DNA of 64,000 bases from Chloroflexota bacterium. Lineage in GTDB: Bacteria > Chloroflexota > Dehalococcoidia > GIF9 > AB-539-J10. The notes under the pieces were generated by a model. It was not told where the DNA came from, did not search any database, and saw only the letters and a list, made by a program, of their open reading frames with translations. The stretch spans positions 122,825 to 186,824 of the forward strand of contig JAYENW010000001.1 in NCBI GenBank assembly GCA_034722275.1, written 5' to 3'. This document shows, in pieces, positions 8,439 through 24,957 of this stretch. Numbering within the stretch: the first letter of the stretch is position 1; the number at the start of each line of letters is the position of its first letter. A program made the translations under genes and the position numbers.

Positions 8439-8978
8439 TTATTCAGCACCTACCATCATTTTCCTTAATGATACTATGGCATTATATTGCAAAGCCTTTA
8501 CCGTGCCTGGATTCTTTCCCAAAGCCTTAGCTGCCTCAGCTACTGAGAACCCAGCACCAAAACGTAGGGAAATCACGTCGCGCTGTGCTGGAGGAAGTTT
8601 CTTTATATTCTCGCTCAGTTCCTCAGCTTCAAACTGGTGTTGTACAATGGAGTCTGGGCCGGGCTCATCGTTGCGGCTTATGTTGTCATTCCACTCTACT
8701 TTTTCTATCTTATTCTCTCTCCTGAAGTAGTCAATCATTTGGTTATGGGCAATGCGAAATAACCACGAAGCAAAAGGCAAATTTCGCCATTTATAGCGGC
8801 CTATTGCCTCTAGAGCTTTCACAAAAACCTGCTGGGTTAGATCTTCAGCCTCATCTCGATTTCCCAGTCTGAGATAGACATAACGATAAATCTTACCGAA
8901 ATACTCCTCATAAAGCTGAGCAAAGGCTTCTCCATCCCCCTTTATCGCGCGAGTGATTACATCTTCTTCAATAGACAT
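8439..8978 (-). CDS. ECF-type RNA polymerase sigma-70 family factor
   Basis: Region 2 (IYRYVYLRLGNRDEAEDLTQQVFVKA ... WLFRIAHNQMIDYFR) and region 4 HTH (LPPAQRDVISLRFGAGFSVAEAAKALGKNPGTVKAL). Confidence 0.88.
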   Translation of the reverse strand: MSIEEDVITRAIKGDGEAFAQLYEEYFGKIYRYVYLRLGNRDEAEDLTQQVFVKALEAIGRYKWRNLPFASWLFRIAHNQMIDYFRRENKIEKVEWNDNISRNDEPGPDSIVQHQFEAEELSENIKKLPPAQRDVISLRFGAGFSVAEAAKALGKNPGTVKALQYNAIVSLRKMMVGAE

Positions 8979-18995: not shown

Positions 18996-19316
18996 TTACT
19001 CTTTCGACTTAACAACTTCATTTATTAATAATCTGGTATATGTCTGGCGATGTCCCCTTTTTCTGTGATGGCGAACTTTAGGTTTATACCTGAAGGCTAT
19101 GATTTTATCTCCTTTAACCTCTCCTAGAGAAGTGGCGATAACCTTAGCACCCTTAACGATAGGATTGCCCATGATCGTATTTTCATTGTCATCAATAAAT
19201 AACACCTGGTCCAGTTCCACAGTGTTGCCTTCAGATATGTTGAGACGCTCAACTTCTACCGTTTGTTTTGGGGCGACTTTATACTGTTTGCCCCCTGTTT
19301 CAATAACAGCGTAAAT
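18996..19316 (-). CDS. rplU: 50S ribosomal protein L21, apparently initiated at ATT
   Basis: The ORF track begins at an internal GTG (19220). Reading upstream in frame gives (I)[39 protein letters not shown], which is the conserved L21 N-terminus. An in-frame TGA lies 9 codons further up with no ATG/GTG/TTG in between. GGAGG sits 7 nt before the ATT at 19316. Confidence 0.85.
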
Positions 19317-19374: not shown

Positions 19375-19502
19375 ACTTCGTAGAAAAGAGACTGCTGTCA
19401 AGATTCAGCAGGTCAAGTTCATTGTCAATCTGCCTTTCTTCCTGTTGTTGCGAGTGGTGAACCCTGAAGCAATCTTCCTGCCTTTCCCATCCTTTGATTT
19501 CC

Positions 19503-20621
19503 TCAAGGCAAGTCTTTGGTTCCCGACTTCTTTCTCTTGCGACGCCACCAGTAGACTACGCCGCCAATAACTATCCAGACAGGACTGAAAATGCCAATCC
19601 AGATAAATATCTTCGCCAGCACATGACCGAAGGAGACCAGGCCGTGCCAGGCTCCACTGACGACGCTGCCAGCGCTCCAGCCAGGGAGGACGGTAATATA
19701 CTCGCTCCTGGGTTCAGTCTCCGTGTTACCCCGGTCATCCGTTACCTTAAGAGAAACAGTGTAGCTGCCAGCGCTCTTATAAGTGTGGGTTGGAGACTTG
19801 CTGGTGCTGGTATCCCCATCGCCGAAGTCCCATTCATAGCTGTAGGGTGGAAAACCGCCGGCAATTTGGCTTTCAAATTCGACCTTCTGCCCTTCTTTCA
19901 CCCTCGTCTTGCGAGCAGTGAATATGACATCAAGCGCAGCCTGCTCCAGACGCACTTCAATAAGTGACGTAGCGGAGGTTCGCTCCAGATACTGCATACG
20001 CCCCTTCGTCTGTTCAATTTCGCCTCTTGTCTTTGAGAGCTCTCGCTGAACATCGAGGATATCCTCTACTGTTTCCGCCTTCTCCATTATCCGGAGTAAT
20101 TGTTCTTCAGTTGCCTCCAGATTTTGCAACCTGGTGCTCAGGTCAACATAATCTTCGGTTACATCCTTGCTGGATGTGCTCTCAGAGCTTACCTCAACTG
20201 CCAGCTTGTGTAGTGCCTTCATGGCATCATTAAAATGCTCTGCGGGCACGCGAATAGTAATACTCCCGGCGAGTCTTTCCCCTTCCGCCCACCTTTTTGA
20301 AGAAACCACATATCCCCCAAAGCTGTCAGCGAGTTCGGCAATCTGGTCTATGCCAGCAGGAACATCCTCCACTACCAGCAACATATCCCCGGTGCGCACA
20401 ATCATGCGCTCGGTAGCCCAGGGCTGACCCACGTCAGTCATCGTCACCGGTGCCCCCTCACCTCCCCTTGCTGGTGATGGTGTTGGCGTCGGCATTGGTG
20501 TTGGTGTTGGCATTGGAGGTGGCGCTGGTTTGGGTGGGGCTATCGCTGCAGGCGCACAGGCACTGGTTAACACCAGCACCAGAATTAACACTGGTAGTGA
20601 AAATTTGAGCAACTTATTCAT
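19503..20621 (-). CDS. Exported lipoprotein with Pro-Thr linker, DUF4349-like coiled region, PKD domain and C-terminal TM anchor
   Basis: Lipobox LVLTSAC, linker PKPAPPPMPTPTPMPTPTPSP, PKD signature YEWDFGDGDTSTSKSPTHTYKSAGSYTVSLKVTD, and a hydrophobic tail followed by WWRRKRKK. Confidence 0.7.
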   Translation of the reverse strand: MNKLLKFSLPVLILVLVLTSACAPAAIAPPKPAPPPMPTPTPMPTPTPSPARGGEGAPVTMTDVGQPWATERMIVRTGDMLLVVEDVPAGIDQIAELADSFGGYVVSSKRWAEGERLAGSITIRVPAEHFNDAMKALHKLAVEVSSESTSSKDVTEDYVDLSTRLQNLEATEEQLLRIMEKAETVEDILDVQRELSKTRGEIEQTKGRMQYLERTSATSLIEVRLEQAALDVIFTARKTRVKEGQKVEFESQIAGGFPPYSYEWDFGDGDTSTSKSPTHTYKSAGSYTVSLKVTDDRGNTETEPRSEYITVLPGWSAGSVVSGAWHGLVSFGHVLAKIFIWIGIFSPVWIVIGGVVYWWRRKRKKSGTKDLP

Positions 20622-20631
20622 TTTTATCTCC

Positions 20632-21411
20632 TTACTTCAGTATAGCATAGGCTACCTGAAGTGTAAGGCTGATTTTCGTCTCTCCAGGGCTGATTGGTGG
20701 TGGGGCTGTTGGTGTTGGTGTTGGTGCCATTGAGCCCACATACATGTCATACATGTCCCAAGTGCGGGGGGCCTGGATTCCCTCAGAGACATAGGTCGCC
20801 TTGCCTAGAGTAACCCCGGCAAGATCAGCTAATTGTTTTGCTTTGGCTTCGGCATCAGCCATTGCCTTTTCTCTTAGTTCTGCATAGTAGGTGGAAGGCT
20901 TTTCCACAGAGAAGCTTATGCCTTGTATGCGAACGAGGTCTCCACCAGCTTCAGCTGCGGCATCGATAATAGTGCCGACCTTATCTATATCCCTTATCTT
21001 AGCACTCACCGTATTAGTTACTTGATAGCCAATTACAATTTCCTCATCTGTCTCTCTATCCCACTTTGTTCTTTGGCGAATGCTGAAATACCGGGTCTGG
21101 ATATCCTTTTCATCCACCCCGCTGTCCTTCAGTGACGCCATCACTTTATCCATGGCTTCGCTTGCCTCAGCTTGAGCCTCGGCCACAGTGGCCTTCCGGG
21201 ATTCGACGCCCAGCCTCAAGGTAGCAATATCAGGGGTAACGCTGACCTCTCCCTTGCCGGTGACCCAAATCCCTTGCTGCTGGGTTTCTAAGTTCACTTG
21301 CAAGCCCTTTGGCAGCCCTATCTGGCTGGCGCCCCCCGGGCTGCAACCACACAAGCCGACTGTTGCTAGTACCAATGTTAGCCCTATTGCCAATAACCAT
21401 TTCCTTTTCAT
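20632..21411 (-). CDS. SIMPL/DUF541-domain lipoprotein
   Basis: Lipobox TVGLCGCS. GKGEVSVTPDIATLRLGVE and ISFSVEKPSTYYAELREKAMADAEAKAKQLA are typical of SIMPL-domain proteins. Confidence 0.75.
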   Translation of the reverse strand: MKRKWLLAIGLTLVLATVGLCGCSPGGASQIGLPKGLQVNLETQQQGIWVTGKGEVSVTPDIATLRLGVESRKATVAEAQAEASEAMDKVMASLKDSGVDEKDIQTRYFSIRQRTKWDRETDEEIVIGYQVTNTVSAKIRDIDKVGTIIDAAAEAGGDLVRIQGISFSVEKPSTYYAELREKAMADAEAKAKQLADLAGVTLGKATYVSEGIQAPRTWDMYDMYVGSMAPTPTPTAPPPISPGETKISLTLQVAYAILK

Positions 21412-21486: not shown

Positions 21487-23037
21487 TTATCGTCTCTTTG
21501 CGCCAAGAAGATAAAGCAGGGCAGCAATGAGCACCACGGCTATAACTATGATAATGATGAACGCCCATAAGGGCAGAAGCCCGGATTGGAAAGAATAAGC
21601 TCCTGTCCAGCCGCTGTCATTCTGGGCACTGTCTATTGCCTTTACCCTCCAGTAATAGGTGCCATAGGGTAGCGCCTGCCCCTGGGGCAAGGTATAGCTA
21701 GTCTCAGTTAACCCGCTGATTTCAGTAACCACCAGACTAACGAAACCTGGATCACTGGCAATCTGTAATTTGTAGCTCACTCCACTGGGGTCTGTCACCG
21801 CCGTCCACTGGGAAGTAGCAGTTTGACTACTGATAAATCCTATCCTGGTGCCATTGGTCGGCAAACTAAGCGTGGGCTTGGCTGGTGGATTCGATTCCAT
21901 AACGAATTTCATGCTGGCTGTGTTGCCTGAGGCATCGGTGACTGTTACAGTATGCTCACCATGTTTGCTCTTGGGCGCTGAGAAACTGGTAGAGAAACTG
22001 CCTTTGCTATTACTTGTAGCGGTAGCCACCTGAGTGGCGTCATATTTAACAGTTACCGATTTGCTGCCGGCAAAGCCGGTGCCGCTGCCACTCAAGCTCG
22101 TGCCCACATCCCCCGAAGTTGGCGTTAGCGTTACCTTAGGCGATACGGTAAATTCCTTATCGCTAATAGTAGTGGCTGAAGTAGAACTCCCATAAGCATC
22201 AATCTTGTGGTTTCCCTTGGTGCTGGCAGGAACTTCAAAGGAAGTCTCCCAGTTGCCATTCTCATCAGCTTCAGTTTGCTTGACGACCTCATCATCGTAG
22301 GTTATCTTGACATCCTCCTCTTCTTCGTCAAATCCACTGCCCTTTACCGTGACTATATCACTCACAGAACCTGATGATTTGCTTACACTTATGCCTGGTT
22401 TTACCTCAAAGGTAATATCCTCGACTTCTGAGAGACTGCTATCATCACCTTTAGCATCTATCTTATGGTCTCCCTTGCTGGAGGCAGGAACGGTAAAGGT
22501 TACCCCCCAACTGCCATACTCATCGGCATCAATACCTTCCTTTACCGTCTCATAATCGCTGCCGTCAAAATAATACCTTAGCTCAATGTTATCCTCGTCT
22601 TCCCCAAATCCAGTGCCTTTCATGGTAACTTCAGTGCCCACGGGGCCTTCGGCGTCATCAGGCTGTGTTATCTCCAGTTTTGCCTTAACTTCAAAGCCTG
22701 TGTAGATAAAGTAGTCATCATTAGTATCGCAAACTCTAATTTCATGACTTCCACTAGCAGATTCAGGGATTTCAAAGTAATCTGTTTCCAGGCTGCCTCC
22801 GCTGCTTATATAATCCTTGTCAACCATTTTCCAGTCATTGTTTAGCTCATAATAGACCCAGACTGTTCCGTAGTAATCACTGAGATCTTCCCCATAAAGG
22901 CGTATTTCATCTCCCACATAGCCCGAGGAGTCTGAGAGCCAGATTGCAGGTTCATCAGCTTGGGCCAAAATGGCCAGGGCCGGAATGGCTATAAGGCAGA
23001 CGGCAAAAGCAATTACCAACCTGGATACTAATTTCAT
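21487..23037 (-). CDS. Cell-surface protein: signal peptide, four Ig-like repeats, FN3-like domain, C-terminal TM anchor
   Basis: Signal peptide ending AILAQA/DE. A recurring repeat end-motif appears four times (ESASGSHEIRVCD, VPASSKGDHKIDAKGD, VPASTKGNHKIDAYGS, APKSKHGEHTVTVTD). Also YYWRVKAIDSAQNDSGW (FN3-like) and the tail LWAFIIIIVIAVVLIAALLYLLGAKRR. Confidence 0.7.
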   Translation of the reverse strand: MKLVSRLVIAFAVCLIAIPALAILAQADEPAIWLSDSSGYVGDEIRLYGEDLSDYYGTVWVYYELNNDWKMVDKDYISSGGSLETDYFEIPESASGSHEIRVCDTNDDYFIYTGFEVKAKLEITQPDDAEGPVGTEVTMKGTGFGEDEDNIELRYYFDGSDYETVKEGIDADEYGSWGVTFTVPASSKGDHKIDAKGDDSSLSEVEDITFEVKPGISVSKSSGSVSDIVTVKGSGFDEEEEDVKITYDDEVVKQTEADENGNWETSFEVPASTKGNHKIDAYGSSTSATTISDKEFTVSPKVTLTPTSGDVGTSLSGSGTGFAGSKSVTVKYDATQVATATSNSKGSFSTSFSAPKSKHGEHTVTVTDASGNTASMKFVMESNPPAKPTLSLPTNGTRIGFISSQTATSQWTAVTDPSGVSYKLQIASDPGFVSLVVTEISGLTETSYTLPQGQALPYGTYYWRVKAIDSAQNDSGWTGAYSFQSGLLPLWAFIIIIVIAVVLIAALLYLLGAKRR

Positions 23038-23060: not shown

Positions 23061-23089
23061 TATACGATGGAGTGAACAATGTATCACAC
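23061..23089 (-). promoter_or_regulatory. ECF-type promoter-like motif, copy 1 (upstream of the surface-protein gene)
   Basis: Minus strand reads GTGTGATACATTGTTCACTCCATCGTATA. It is 28/29 identical to the copy at 24929-24957 and ends 23 nt upstream of the ATG at 23037. The CGTATA element resembles ECF -10 elements. Confidence 0.6.
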
Positions 23090-23168
23090 CTCTCATAGAG
23101 TTCTTAAAACTGCATCTCACTTTGTATAACGCATAAAGGTGCTATTGCTTTATACCCCTCCAATTACT

Positions 23169-24356
23169 TCACTGCAGAGGTATATTAAACTCCCATGGGC
23201 CTTGCCAATCACCGAACTTAGTTATGGTAAAGGTTAATTCCCTGGCATCGCTGGGCAGGGGGTCAAGGTTGTTCCAAATGAGTTCTGTCCCTTGGTCAAG
23301 GAGGCGTTCTGCTGCATAACCGGCATCTTTGGCGGAGCCATCTACAGTATATTGAGCATGAATAGGAATCAGCTTCGCAAGCAGTGTGTCAGTGCCCTCC
23401 TCAGTTAGTCGGGTAGTGGTAAAGGCATAAAATTTAGTTTCTCCTGCTGATAGCTCCACTCGCTCCAGGGTGATGGTTATTCTGTTCGCCGTCTGAGACT
23501 GGTTTACTTCAATAGTCTTCTCCATAGCTCCTTGGGGGAATTGGATAAGCACTTTGGTTATGGTACCAAAGCCCATTCCCGATCTCGTTGTCGGTGGCGT
23601 ACCTTTAGTAACAGTAATGCCCTGGACATCTAGATAGTACCAGCCTGGAGCTACCTGCTGCCCACTATCGTCCTGTTGCTCCCAGACCAGGGTATATTTT
23701 GCTATTTCTCCCGGTTGCAAGCGAAGCTCTTCCGAGCCTTCGGCGAAAGCACGAATTGTTTCCCATGGTCTGGGTCGCATAACTTGCATCCTGGGAGGAA
23801 ATGGGGTTATCGTGATAGATTCTGAGCTGGCATTCTTAAACTCGAACTCAATCTCGACGTCTTCCCCGGGCAAACAGGCACTCTTTGCTGGAGTTGCCTC
23901 TAGCTCCAGAAAGTTGGGTGTTGGCCAGGGAGGTGGAGGTGTTGGTGTAGGAGCGGGTGTTGGTGTGGGGATAGGCATTGGCGCAGGTGCTGAAGGCGGA
24001 GTAAGTATTCCTGTTCCCCAGATGATGCCAGCAGCGGCAATGACCAGGAGCGAAGCTGCTACTGCCCGCCACATGGGTCGCTGTGGAAGCAGGTGCTTCA
24101 ATCCTTCCCGGAAGCGATTACGTTTCGGTCTCTCCTGCTCCATTTCGCTTAACTTGGAGAGTAAGCTATCCTTGAGTTGGGCTTTGAAGGAGGGGCGAGG
24201 AGCTCCTTTGAGATCGATCAGCTTCCGAGCGAAATCAATTGCCTCCCGGTAATCATCGGGCATATCAGGGTAAGGCTCTATTTTCTCCCCGGCTAGCATT
24301 TCATCTACAGCCTCTGAGAATTCTCGAACAAAGTCCTGCTCTTTTTCCTTTGCCAT
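23169..24356 (-). CDS. Membrane-anchored anti-sigma factor candidate with large extracytoplasmic beta-rich domain
   Basis: Lies 2 nt downstream of an ECF sigma gene. Has a cytoplasmic N-domain, one TM (WRAVAASLLVIAAAGIIWGTGIL), linker PPSAPAPMPIPTPTPAPTPTPPPPWPTP, and then about 250 aa of extracytoplasmic sequence. Confidence 0.65.
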   Translation of the reverse strand: MAKEKEQDFVREFSEAVDEMLAGEKIEPYPDMPDDYREAIDFARKLIDLKGAPRPSFKAQLKDSLLSKLSEMEQERPKRNRFREGLKHLLPQRPMWRAVAASLLVIAAAGIIWGTGILTPPSAPAPMPIPTPTPAPTPTPPPPWPTPNFLELEATPAKSACLPGEDVEIEFEFKNASSESITITPFPPRMQVMRPRPWETIRAFAEGSEELRLQPGEIAKYTLVWEQQDDSGQQVAPGWYYLDVQGITVTKGTPPTTRSGMGFGTITKVLIQFPQGAMEKTIEVNQSQTANRITITLERVELSAGETKFYAFTTTRLTEEGTDTLLAKLIPIHAQYTVDGSAKDAGYAAERLLDQGTELIWNNLDPLPSDARELTFTITKFGDWQGPWEFNIPLQ

Positions 24357-24358
24357 TT

Positions 24359-24895
24359 TTATCCCTCTTTAAATTTATCCCTTAGCTTGCATATCACCCG
24401 ATAAAGTATTGTCCCTACATTCGATTCAGAAAGGGTAAGTATTTTGGCAATCTGACGATTAGTTAGCTCGGCTCCAAACTTCAGGGAGACGATCTCCCGC
24501 TCCTGCTGGGGAAGTTCCCTTAGGTATGTATTTAAATTTTGTAGTTCTTCCTTTCTGATAACCTTCTCCTCAGGAGATATTTCTTCTGAAGCTGGCTCAA
24601 GTGTTTCTTCAATAGAGACAGTAATCTTCCTGCTCTTAACCCGGTAGTGATCAATGACAGTATTGCGGGCAACAGTCATAAGCCAGGTAGAAAAAGCTGC
24701 TTTGTCTGAGCGGTAGCTATCAAGCCTTGTTAGCACCTTCTCAAATACAGCTGAAGTTAAATCCTCAGCTAAATCTATATCACCCACCTGATAACTGATG
24801 TAGCGAAAGACTTTGGGCAGATAATACTCATAGAGCTGGGCAAAGGTCTCTCTGGCGCTCTCAGCCCTTTTATCTGGCCGCAACCTTAATCCCAC
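24359..24895 (-). CDS. ECF-type RNA polymerase sigma-70 family factor
   Basis: Region 2 (VFRYISYQVGDIDLAEDLTSAVFEKV ... WLMTVARNTVIDHYR) and region 4 (LPQQEREIVSLKFGAELTNRQIAKILTLSESNVGTILYR). GTG start. Confidence 0.88.
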   Translation of the reverse strand: MGLRLRPDKRAESARETFAQLYEYYLPKVFRYISYQVGDIDLAEDLTSAVFEKVLTRLDSYRSDKAAFSTWLMTVARNTVIDHYRVKSRKITVSIEETLEPASEEISPEEKVIRKEELQNLNTYLRELPQQEREIVSLKFGAELTNRQIAKILTLSESNVGTILYRVICKLRDKFKEG

Positions 24896-24928
24896 TTAAA
24901 TAACCCCAAAGCCTTTCTCTATTTTAAT

Positions 24929-24957
24929 TATACGATGGAGTGAAGAATGTATCACAC
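24929..24957 (-). promoter_or_regulatory. ECF-type promoter-like motif, copy 2 (upstream of the sigma/anti-sigma operon)
   Basis: Minus strand reads GTGTGATACATTCTTCACTCCATCGTATA, 33 nt upstream of the sigma start. This position fits autoregulation. Confidence 0.6.

Follow-up and report, generated by a model that had tools for sequence, protein, structure and literature searches.

The stretch of DNA analysed here, 64,000 nucleotides (nt) of contig JAYENW010000001.1 from an uncultured Chloroflexota bacterium (the 64-kb window; all positions below are counted from its first letter), contains two near-identical copies of a 29-nt motif. One copy stands ahead of an operon that encodes an extracytoplasmic function (ECF) sigma factor and a putative anti-sigma factor, and the other stands ahead of the gene for a surface protein with immunoglobulin-like repeats. 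Both motif copies and the genes that follow them lie on the minus strand, and the features that matter first are these:

24929..24957, minus strand: candidate promoter copy 1, ahead of the sigma/putative anti-sigma operon, with TGTGATAC at 24956..24949 and CGTATA at 24934..24929
24359..24895, minus strand: ECF (group IV) sigma factor of 178 amino acids (aa), GTG start, identified by Pfam and TIGR02937
23169..24356, minus strand: putative anti-sigma factor, 395 aa, assigned from position and topology, with its start codon 2 nt after the sigma stop
23061..23089, minus strand: candidate promoter copy 2, ahead of the surface-protein operon, with TGTGATAC at 23088..23081 and CGTATA at 23066..23061
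21487..23037, minus strand: surface protein, 516 aa, with a signal peptide, TIG/Ig-like repeats and a C-terminal membrane anchor

Read on the minus strand, the motif is GTGTGATACATT[C/G]TTCACTCCATCGTATA, and its copies at 24957..24929 and 23089..23061 are identical at 28 of 29 positions. A search of the window with TATACGATGGAGTGAASAATGTATCACAC, allowing up to three mismatches, returned exactly two matches (23061-23089 and 24929-24957 in plus-strand coordinates), which differ by one base; no match was found in 100 dinucleotide-preserving shuffles of the window. An earlier note on this DNA had reported two such copies and held that their origin by chance was negligible, and both claims are borne out by these searches. 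The distances that it gave to the gene starts also agree with the coordinates: 33 nt separate the motif end at 24929 from the GTG at 24895 that opens the sigma open reading frame (ORF), and 23 nt separate the motif end at 23061 from the ATG at 23037 that opens the 516-aa ORF. Copy 1 sits in a 95-nt gap after an alpha/beta-hydrolase gene, and copy 2 is followed by AAGGAGG and then by the ATG. When the two upstream regions are aligned, their likeness is sharply confined to ∼30 nt and the flanks are unrelated. Likewise, neither motif site was found to belong to any other repeat family in the window.

A weight matrix built from 12 orthologous sites gives both window copies a score of ∼46 bits, compared with at most 14 bits in the rest of the window and a maximum of 12 in the shuffled window. 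No weaker extra copy above 14 bits was found in the window, including the regions before the SIMPL and DUF4349-PKD genes and before a second ECF sigma gene (all described below). The search for regulon members in the source organism covers this 64-kb window.

Orthologous loci were chosen by likeness of the sigma protein, with the motif not consulted. This protein-first set comprises nine loci (L001-L009) on eight distinct contigs, L004 being a shorter copy of L003, and their sigma factors are 62-91% identical to that of the window. All eight distinct loci carry TGTGATAC-N14-CGTATA on the same strand, 29-34 nt before the sigma start. The motif is thus kept ahead of the orthologous operons in related genomes, which is one of the checks that the earlier note had suggested. 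In these sites both blocks are nearly invariant, and the 14-nt spacer between them is pyrimidine-rich but drifting; the spacer of L008 is entirely different. Four distinct contigs of the set contain a second copy of the motif. It precedes an ortholog of the surface-protein gene in L001 and L005 and unrelated small genes in L003 and L007. In L005, other genes separate the surface-protein gene from the sigma operon, and the spacers of the two copies differ at four positions.

Public genomes and metagenomes were scanned in the opposite direction, motif first, with the pattern TGTGATACNTTNYYNNNNNNNNCGTATA, which specifies ∼17 positions. The scan of GTDB species representatives (185,579 species genomes) yielded 85 sites in 83 stretches, ∼50 of them from metagenome-assembled genomes (MAGs) of Chloroflexota (Dehalococcoidales, Dehalococcoidia and Anaerolineales). 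Searches with tblastn placed a sigma homolog (34-68% identity) directly downstream and on the same strand at 35 of the 85 sites, and on the opposite strand at none. Nine further GTDB sites lie within 1.2 kb of a sigma homolog, seven of them just after the sigma operon and two divergent from it. The metagenome scan gave at least 121 sites; among the matches listed, 59 of 121 stand immediately ahead of a sigma homolog, in every case on its strand, and a further 10 have one as a neighbour. Among the sites listed for both scans, then, 94 of 206 lie directly upstream of a sigma homolog in strict co-orientation, with none on the opposite strand. By our own estimate, a random site would fall just upstream of one given gene family at a rate of ∼1/1000, and in our view the excess over this rate settles that the motif and the sigma factor are functionally linked. 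The sigma-linked sites span MAGs of Chloroflexota, Acidobacteriota, Elusimicrobiota and Actinomycetota. Beyond the blocks, nothing is conserved in the scan-derived sites except a T/C-rich spacer. Intragenic matches in Bacteroidota penicillin-binding protein genes and in thymidylate synthase genes, as well as single sigma-less hits in unrelated phyla, were treated as chance noise.

The earlier note had taken the gene at 24359-24895 to encode an ECF sigma factor, and its domain content agrees. Pfam finds Sigma70_r2 (residues 21-89) and Sigma70_r4_2 (residues 119-166) and nothing else, and the protein scores 125.2 bits against the curated ECF superfamily model TIGR02937 (cutoff 42.9). The best specific model is that of the BldN family (TIGR02952; 160.6 bits, below the cutoff of 206.45), and the best matches in the PDB are BldN (6dxo_A at the top), SigW and RpoE. 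Membership in the BldN family was rejected, since the score falls under the cutoff, region 2 begins at residue 21 and so leaves no N-terminal extension, and the relatives of the protein are mostly Chloroflexota MAGs; BldN is kept as the nearest relative. More than 1000 homologs of the sigma factor were found, mostly on metagenome contigs.

The window also encodes a second ECF paralog (8930..8463, minus strand), which is 34% identical to the sigma factor under study. This raises an alternative in which the motif is a true ECF promoter but is read by a paralogous sigma factor, such as the one at 8930..8463, instead of the adjacent one. The organism encodes several ECF paralogs, and promoters of different ECF groups can look alike. 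However, the motif tracks the clade of the adjacent factor, both at the 94 scan-derived sites listed and at eight of eight distinct protein-first loci, and the paralogs that were examined have no copy upstream. TGTGATAC...CGTATA was not found near the window paralog, which presumably has a promoter specificity of its own. Similarly, no motif occurs within 200 nt upstream of paralogous ECF genes (26-37% identical) in L003, L005, L007 and L009 with two mismatches per block allowed. We therefore consider it very unlikely that a paralog is the cognate reader.

The bipartite core of the motif, TGTGATAC-N14-CGTATA, has dimensions compatible with a promoter for an ECF holoenzyme. A gap of 15-16 bp lies between a 7-bp block (TGTGATA or GTGTGAT) and CGTAT, and ECF promoter discovery uses a range of 15-18 bp for the gap between −35 and −10 blocks of 7 and 5 bp (PMC7776599). 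The downstream block is likewise of the CGT type: the CG ahead of TATA is kept in 13 of the 14 protein-first sites, and where a sigma-70 −10 hexamer would have its final T, only 3 of the 14 have one. No information content was found downstream of CGTATA in 184 unique sites. In the sigma-70 −10 hexamer the last T is invariant, and a preceding CG is irrelevant to sigma-70. The retention of CG and the rarity of the final T fit a CGT-type ECF −10 element rather than a housekeeping one.

The gene that follows the sigma gene encodes a putative anti-sigma factor. Its product consists of a helical cytoplasmic head (residues ∼1-90), one membrane helix (∼95-114), a Pro/Thr-rich linker and a beta-rich ectodomain with weak hits to BsuPI, DUF4232 and DUF5643. 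In an AlphaFold2 model of residues 1-120 (mean predicted local distance difference test score, pLDDT, 68), helices at residues 2-21, 34-48, 55-74 and 76-89 precede the membrane helix. About 20 homologs share the juxtamembrane segment, the membrane helix and the ectodomain but carry a classical zf-HC2 head. Comparison of the candidate head with these zf-HC2 heads by hhalign gave a probability of 18%, for the juxtamembrane part only (residues 50-92). Among scan-derived loci, the head and membrane helix come after the sigma gene in 17 of the 17 whose sigma factor is 55% identical or more, in 11 of the 26 with 45-55% identity and in 3 of the 31 with less. Shorter versions also exist (e.g., 126 aa without an ectodomain in L011, and 268 aa in L212), and more distant clades encode other short-headed single-pass proteins at position +1. 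The head thus travels with the sigma factor while the sensor domain varies or is swapped, as expected of a sigma-binding domain. Together, the +1 position of the gene, the single-pass topology, the co-inheritance of the head with sigma and the variable sensor suggest from context that this membrane protein acts as the anti-sigma factor. In several proteins (P0159, P0161, P0176, P0178, P0203, P0204, P0207 and others), the module of membrane helix and ectodomain is joined to classical zf-HC2 heads, which indicates, as judged from their sequences, an exchange of heads among sensor modules in the lineages concerned.

On this evidence, the 29-mer very probably serves the ECF sigma factor encoded at 24895..24359 as its cognate promoter. 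The earlier note had read the motif as an autoregulated ECF promoter, and the eight of eight orthologous loci, the co-orientation in the scans and the conservation of the two blocks lend that reading their support. RNA polymerase carrying this sigma factor would recognise TGTGATAC as the upstream (−35-type) element and CGTATA as the downstream (−10-type) element. Copy 1 would drive the sigma/anti-sigma operon, giving positive autoregulation, and copy 2, just past the sigma operon, would drive the genes for the surface protein, the SIMPL protein and the DUF4349-PKD protein. The single-pass membrane protein whose gene adjoins that of the sigma factor is assumed to keep the factor inactive at rest; an envelope signal would then free the factor and raise the expression of both operons.

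Several observations weigh against this interpretation. The scan pattern fixed both blocks, and the conservation of the blocks in scan-derived sites is consequently no independent evidence; the protein-first loci alone speak to it. If GATAC is the equivalent of GAAAC, the −35 core in SigW-type promoters, 14 nt separate it from CGT, two fewer than usual, which leaves the register of the −35 element uncertain. The spacer is also almost identical between the two window copies, which may stem from a recent duplication and need not mean that every base is under selection. For the candidate anti-sigma factor, the N-terminal 92 residues have no Pfam match (PF13490 included) and retrieved no anti-sigma chain in a PDB profile search, and a Foldseek search of the AlphaFold2 head model against the PDB returned nothing with E < 1. 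The earlier note had proposed that, if its reading holds, sequence alone defines a sigma factor, its anti-sigma factor, its promoter and at least one target operon. The sequence comparisons support the sigma factor and the predicted promoter and target; the anti-sigma factor is assigned from context and resembles no known anti-sigma domain. Lastly, a consensus scan shows that the copy ahead of the sigma gene also fits a sigma-70-type promoter, GTGATA-N17-TATAAT, at 10 of 12 positions.

The last of these points favours an alternative in which the site is a housekeeping (sigma-70/SigA) promoter and the additional conserved bases are the operator of a separate factor that co-regulates both operons. 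A weak 4-bp inverted symmetry, ATAC...GTAT, with its halves about two helical turns apart, could be read as such an operator, but TGTG has no symmetric partner. As a −35 candidate, GTGATA matches four of six positions. At the −10 element, the rarity of the final T and the lack of information content past CGTATA run counter to a housekeeping promoter, which would also leave the conserved CG unexplained. Moreover, in four phyla the gene of this sigma factor is the only one that regularly goes with the motif, and no conserved transcription-factor gene accompanies it. We accordingly assign a housekeeping promoter with a separate operator a very low probability.

The near-identity of the spacers bears on a different alternative, namely that copy 2 regulates nothing and arose incidentally, through local duplication or gene conversion in the recent past or as part of a small dispersed repeat. 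Identity at 28 of 29 positions does extend into the spacer, beyond what a promoter needs. Against this, the likeness stops at the motif edges with no flanking repeat, and the only two copies in 64 kb are both co-oriented with a gene and at promoter distance from its start codon. In addition, the surface-protein ortholog keeps the motif in L001, in L169 and in L005, where the gene stands apart from the sigma operon and the two spacers differ. A by-product of duplication is therefore highly improbable. The earlier note had named a dispersed repeat unrelated to gene starts as a finding that would speak against a promoter; what is found instead is two copies in a fixed relation to gene starts. A longer repeat or mobile element was likewise rejected as the source of the motif, given its sharp edges, its two copies in 64 kb and the 94 same-strand against zero opposite-strand sites among those listed.

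A role at the RNA level, as a shared 5′ leader, a small RNA or an attenuator, would be compatible with the location of the motif near ribosome-binding sites and with a 4-bp GUGA/UCAC stem that can form in the window copies. Yet the copies fold no better than shuffled sequences (z = −0.67 and +0.91), orthologs have lost the small stem (they show TCAT or C-rich spacers), and in many relatives CGTATA ends ∼10 nt before the start codon. Searches of the 64-kb window for Rfam families and tRNAs found none. With no such family in the window and no folding signal at the motif, an RNA element was rejected, and we judge it the least probable of the alternatives, with next to no weight.

In L013, L027, L030, L031, L048 and other Anaerolineales and Acidobacteriota loci, which belong to more distant relatives, the sigma gene starts only ∼10 nt past CGTATA. 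If transcription begins at the usual ECF position, the transcripts of such loci would be nearly leaderless.

Downstream of the surface-protein gene, the presumed target operon continues with two more genes and ends in a hairpin:

20632..21411, minus strand: SIMPL (DUF541) protein, identified by Pfam
19503..20621, minus strand: DUF4349-PKD membrane protein, identified by Pfam; last gene of the presumed target operon
19392..19411, minus strand: terminator-like hairpin with a T-run, ∼90 nt past the DUF4349-PKD stop

The hairpin at 19411..19392 is followed by a strong sigma-70-like site ahead of rplU, and, to judge from its sequence, it is the likely end of the operon. The SIMPL gene is probably part of the same transcript as the 516-aa surface-protein gene; the 75-nt gap between the two contains a weak sigma-70-like site. 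A SIMPL gene lies directly after the anti-sigma gene in L002, L008 and L009, and a homolog of the DUF4349-PKD protein is encoded after the anti-sigma gene in L006. This recurrence supports placing the SIMPL and DUF4349-PKD genes of the window in the target operon. Between the anti-sigma gene and copy 2 we found no convincing hairpin with a T-run as a terminator, so that read-through from the sigma operon is possible.

The motif precedes further genes in other genomes, and recurring envelope or secreted families are prominent among them. It stands before the surface-protein ortholog (L001, L005, L169) and before DUF4349-PKD homologs that have a motif copy of their own (L130, L144, L163). Among the non-redundant ORFs behind non-sigma sites, 5 of 73 encode alpha-2-macroglobulin and another 5 of the 73 encode VWA membrane proteins; at least five such sites are followed by OppB-type permeases or by short proteins that resemble the N-terminus of these permeases. 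Further motif-linked families include DUF6612 lipoproteins, chagasin-family I42 inhibitors, FtsX permeases and an RHS/DUF11 protein.

Some of the recurring products are unusual. In Dehalococcoidales MAGs and metagenome contigs (L011:3741-4097, L033, L044, L057, L105), the motif is repeatedly followed at once by short membrane proteins of 80-118 aa whose likeness to OppB/DppB-type ABC permeases is limited to the first transmembrane helix and loop; some of them come immediately behind the sigma/anti-sigma pair. Full-length permeases (L068) are motif-linked as well, as are VWA fusions that share the OppB-like N-terminus (L018, L080). A conserved protein of ∼163 aa (MVNNKSNVVMITEEDIEQLL...PAHRYEGEL) without a Pfam match lies behind the motif in L095, L161, L170, L202 and L212:507-995, often just past the sigma operon. 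Two independent contigs (L149, L208) have a threonine-aldolase-like (Beta_elim_lyase) gene 70-88 nt downstream of the motif. This cytoplasmic enzyme departs from the envelope theme; its link to the motif may be due to chance, or the gene may be a true target that stands apart from the rest.

The motif-linked genes are enriched in those for protease traps and inhibitors. Motif-linked loci with alpha-2-macroglobulin are L021, L069, L108, L129, L168 and L200, and a chagasin I42 inhibitor occurs in L065 (L155 and L167 are alike by eye only). The ectodomain of the putative anti-sigma factor (23169-24356) gives a weak hit to a BsuPI-like proteinase-inhibitor fold. It is possible that this enrichment hints at the signal or the function of the system.

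Among known ECF systems, SigW-RsiW of Bacillus subtilis, whose group we take to be ECF245, shares several traits with the system described here. Both have a two-domain sigma factor of ∼180 aa, a single-pass membrane protein encoded by the next gene, and a bipartite promoter with a CGTA(TA) −10 block before the operon of the sigma factor itself and before envelope-protein genes. The promoter predicted for ECF245 is TGAAAC-Xn-CGTAT (Casas-Pastor et al., bioRxiv 10.1101/2019.12.11.873521, Table S2), whereas the upstream block here is TGTGATAC in place of TGAAAC. The two systems differ further in that the +1 protein here lacks zf-HC2 and in their hosts, an uncultured Chloroflexota (Dehalococcoidia-like) bacterium in this case and Firmicutes in that of SigW-RsiW.

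By sequence, the closest specific family is that of SigmaBldN-RsbN from Streptomyces (ECF121; PDB 6DXO). SigmaBldN controls secreted surface proteins, and RsbN is a single-pass membrane anti-sigma factor without likeness to classical anti-sigma domains (PMC6101532). The partner protein in the window likewise shows no similarity to such domains. RsbN homologs have been reported only in Streptomyces (PMC6101532), and the ECF classification describes ECF121 as confined to Actinobacteria, with an N-terminal extension of ∼30-130 aa and no promoter motif listed. Unlike SigmaBldN, the sigma factor of the window falls below the family cutoff, has no N-terminal pro-extension and is not actinobacterial.

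The same classification predicts GTGATC-Xn-CGTA for ECF11, TGATAG-Xn-CGTATTA for ECF23 and TGTGATTTT-Xn-GCGAAT for ECF22. ECF23 (Firmicutes) and ECF11 (RpoE-ChrR) resemble the present system in having (G)TGAT(A/C) upstream and CGTA(T) downstream, and ECF23 also encodes a single-pass anti-sigma factor at +1. The phyla differ, however, and the anti-sigma factors of ECF23 carry DUF4179 or DUF4367, while ECF11 uses the soluble ChrR. The exact combination TGTGATAC...CGTATA (or a motif given as GATAC, CGTATA or TGTGATAC) was not found for any ECF group in the published supplementary tables searched. In its logic, the arrangement appears ordinary. ECF autoregulation allows promoter, regulator and targets to be predicted from sequence (PMC7826278), and the locus would be a standard autoregulated ECF sigma/promoter/target set that confirms this well-known rule without changing it.

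For an uncultured Dehalococcoidia-like lineage in which genetics is not possible, the locus offers a circuit defined from sequence: a sigma factor, a probable anti-sigma factor, a promoter consensus and a first target operon. A simple motif pattern is specific enough to find the sigma gene together with candidate members of the regulon (surface proteins, DUF4349-PKD, SIMPL, alpha-2-macroglobulin, VWA proteins and peptidase inhibitors) across hundreds of MAGs. The sigma factor and its predicted promoter may also be of use as an orthogonal ECF/promoter pair for synthetic biology.

A more ambitious proposal would make this an undescribed ECF group that spans Chloroflexota, Acidobacteriota, Elusimicrobiota and Actinomycetota, with the unlisted promoter TGTGATAC-N14-CGTATA, a new class of anti-sigma head and, possibly, the sensing of attack by foreign proteases. 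We regard this combination as improbable. The protease traps and inhibitors in the regulon (alpha-2-macroglobulin and chagasin I42), together with the BsuPI-like ectodomain hit, could mean that foreign proteases are sensed; if that were true, cleavage of the ectodomain would release the sigma factor and switch on protection of the envelope.

Two minor observations concern the genes of the cluster and its neighbour. Related GGTGTTGG-type DNA repeats at 20475-20536, 20695-20726 and 23934-23989 encode Pro/Thr-rich linkers (PTPTPAPTP), which are common to three envelope proteins of the cluster, namely the putative anti-sigma factor, the SIMPL protein and the DUF4349-PKD protein. In rplU (window position 19316, minus strand), the L21 protein appears to start at an ATT codon with GGAGG 6 nt upstream; the sole canonical start, a GTG at 19220, would remove the conserved N-terminus.

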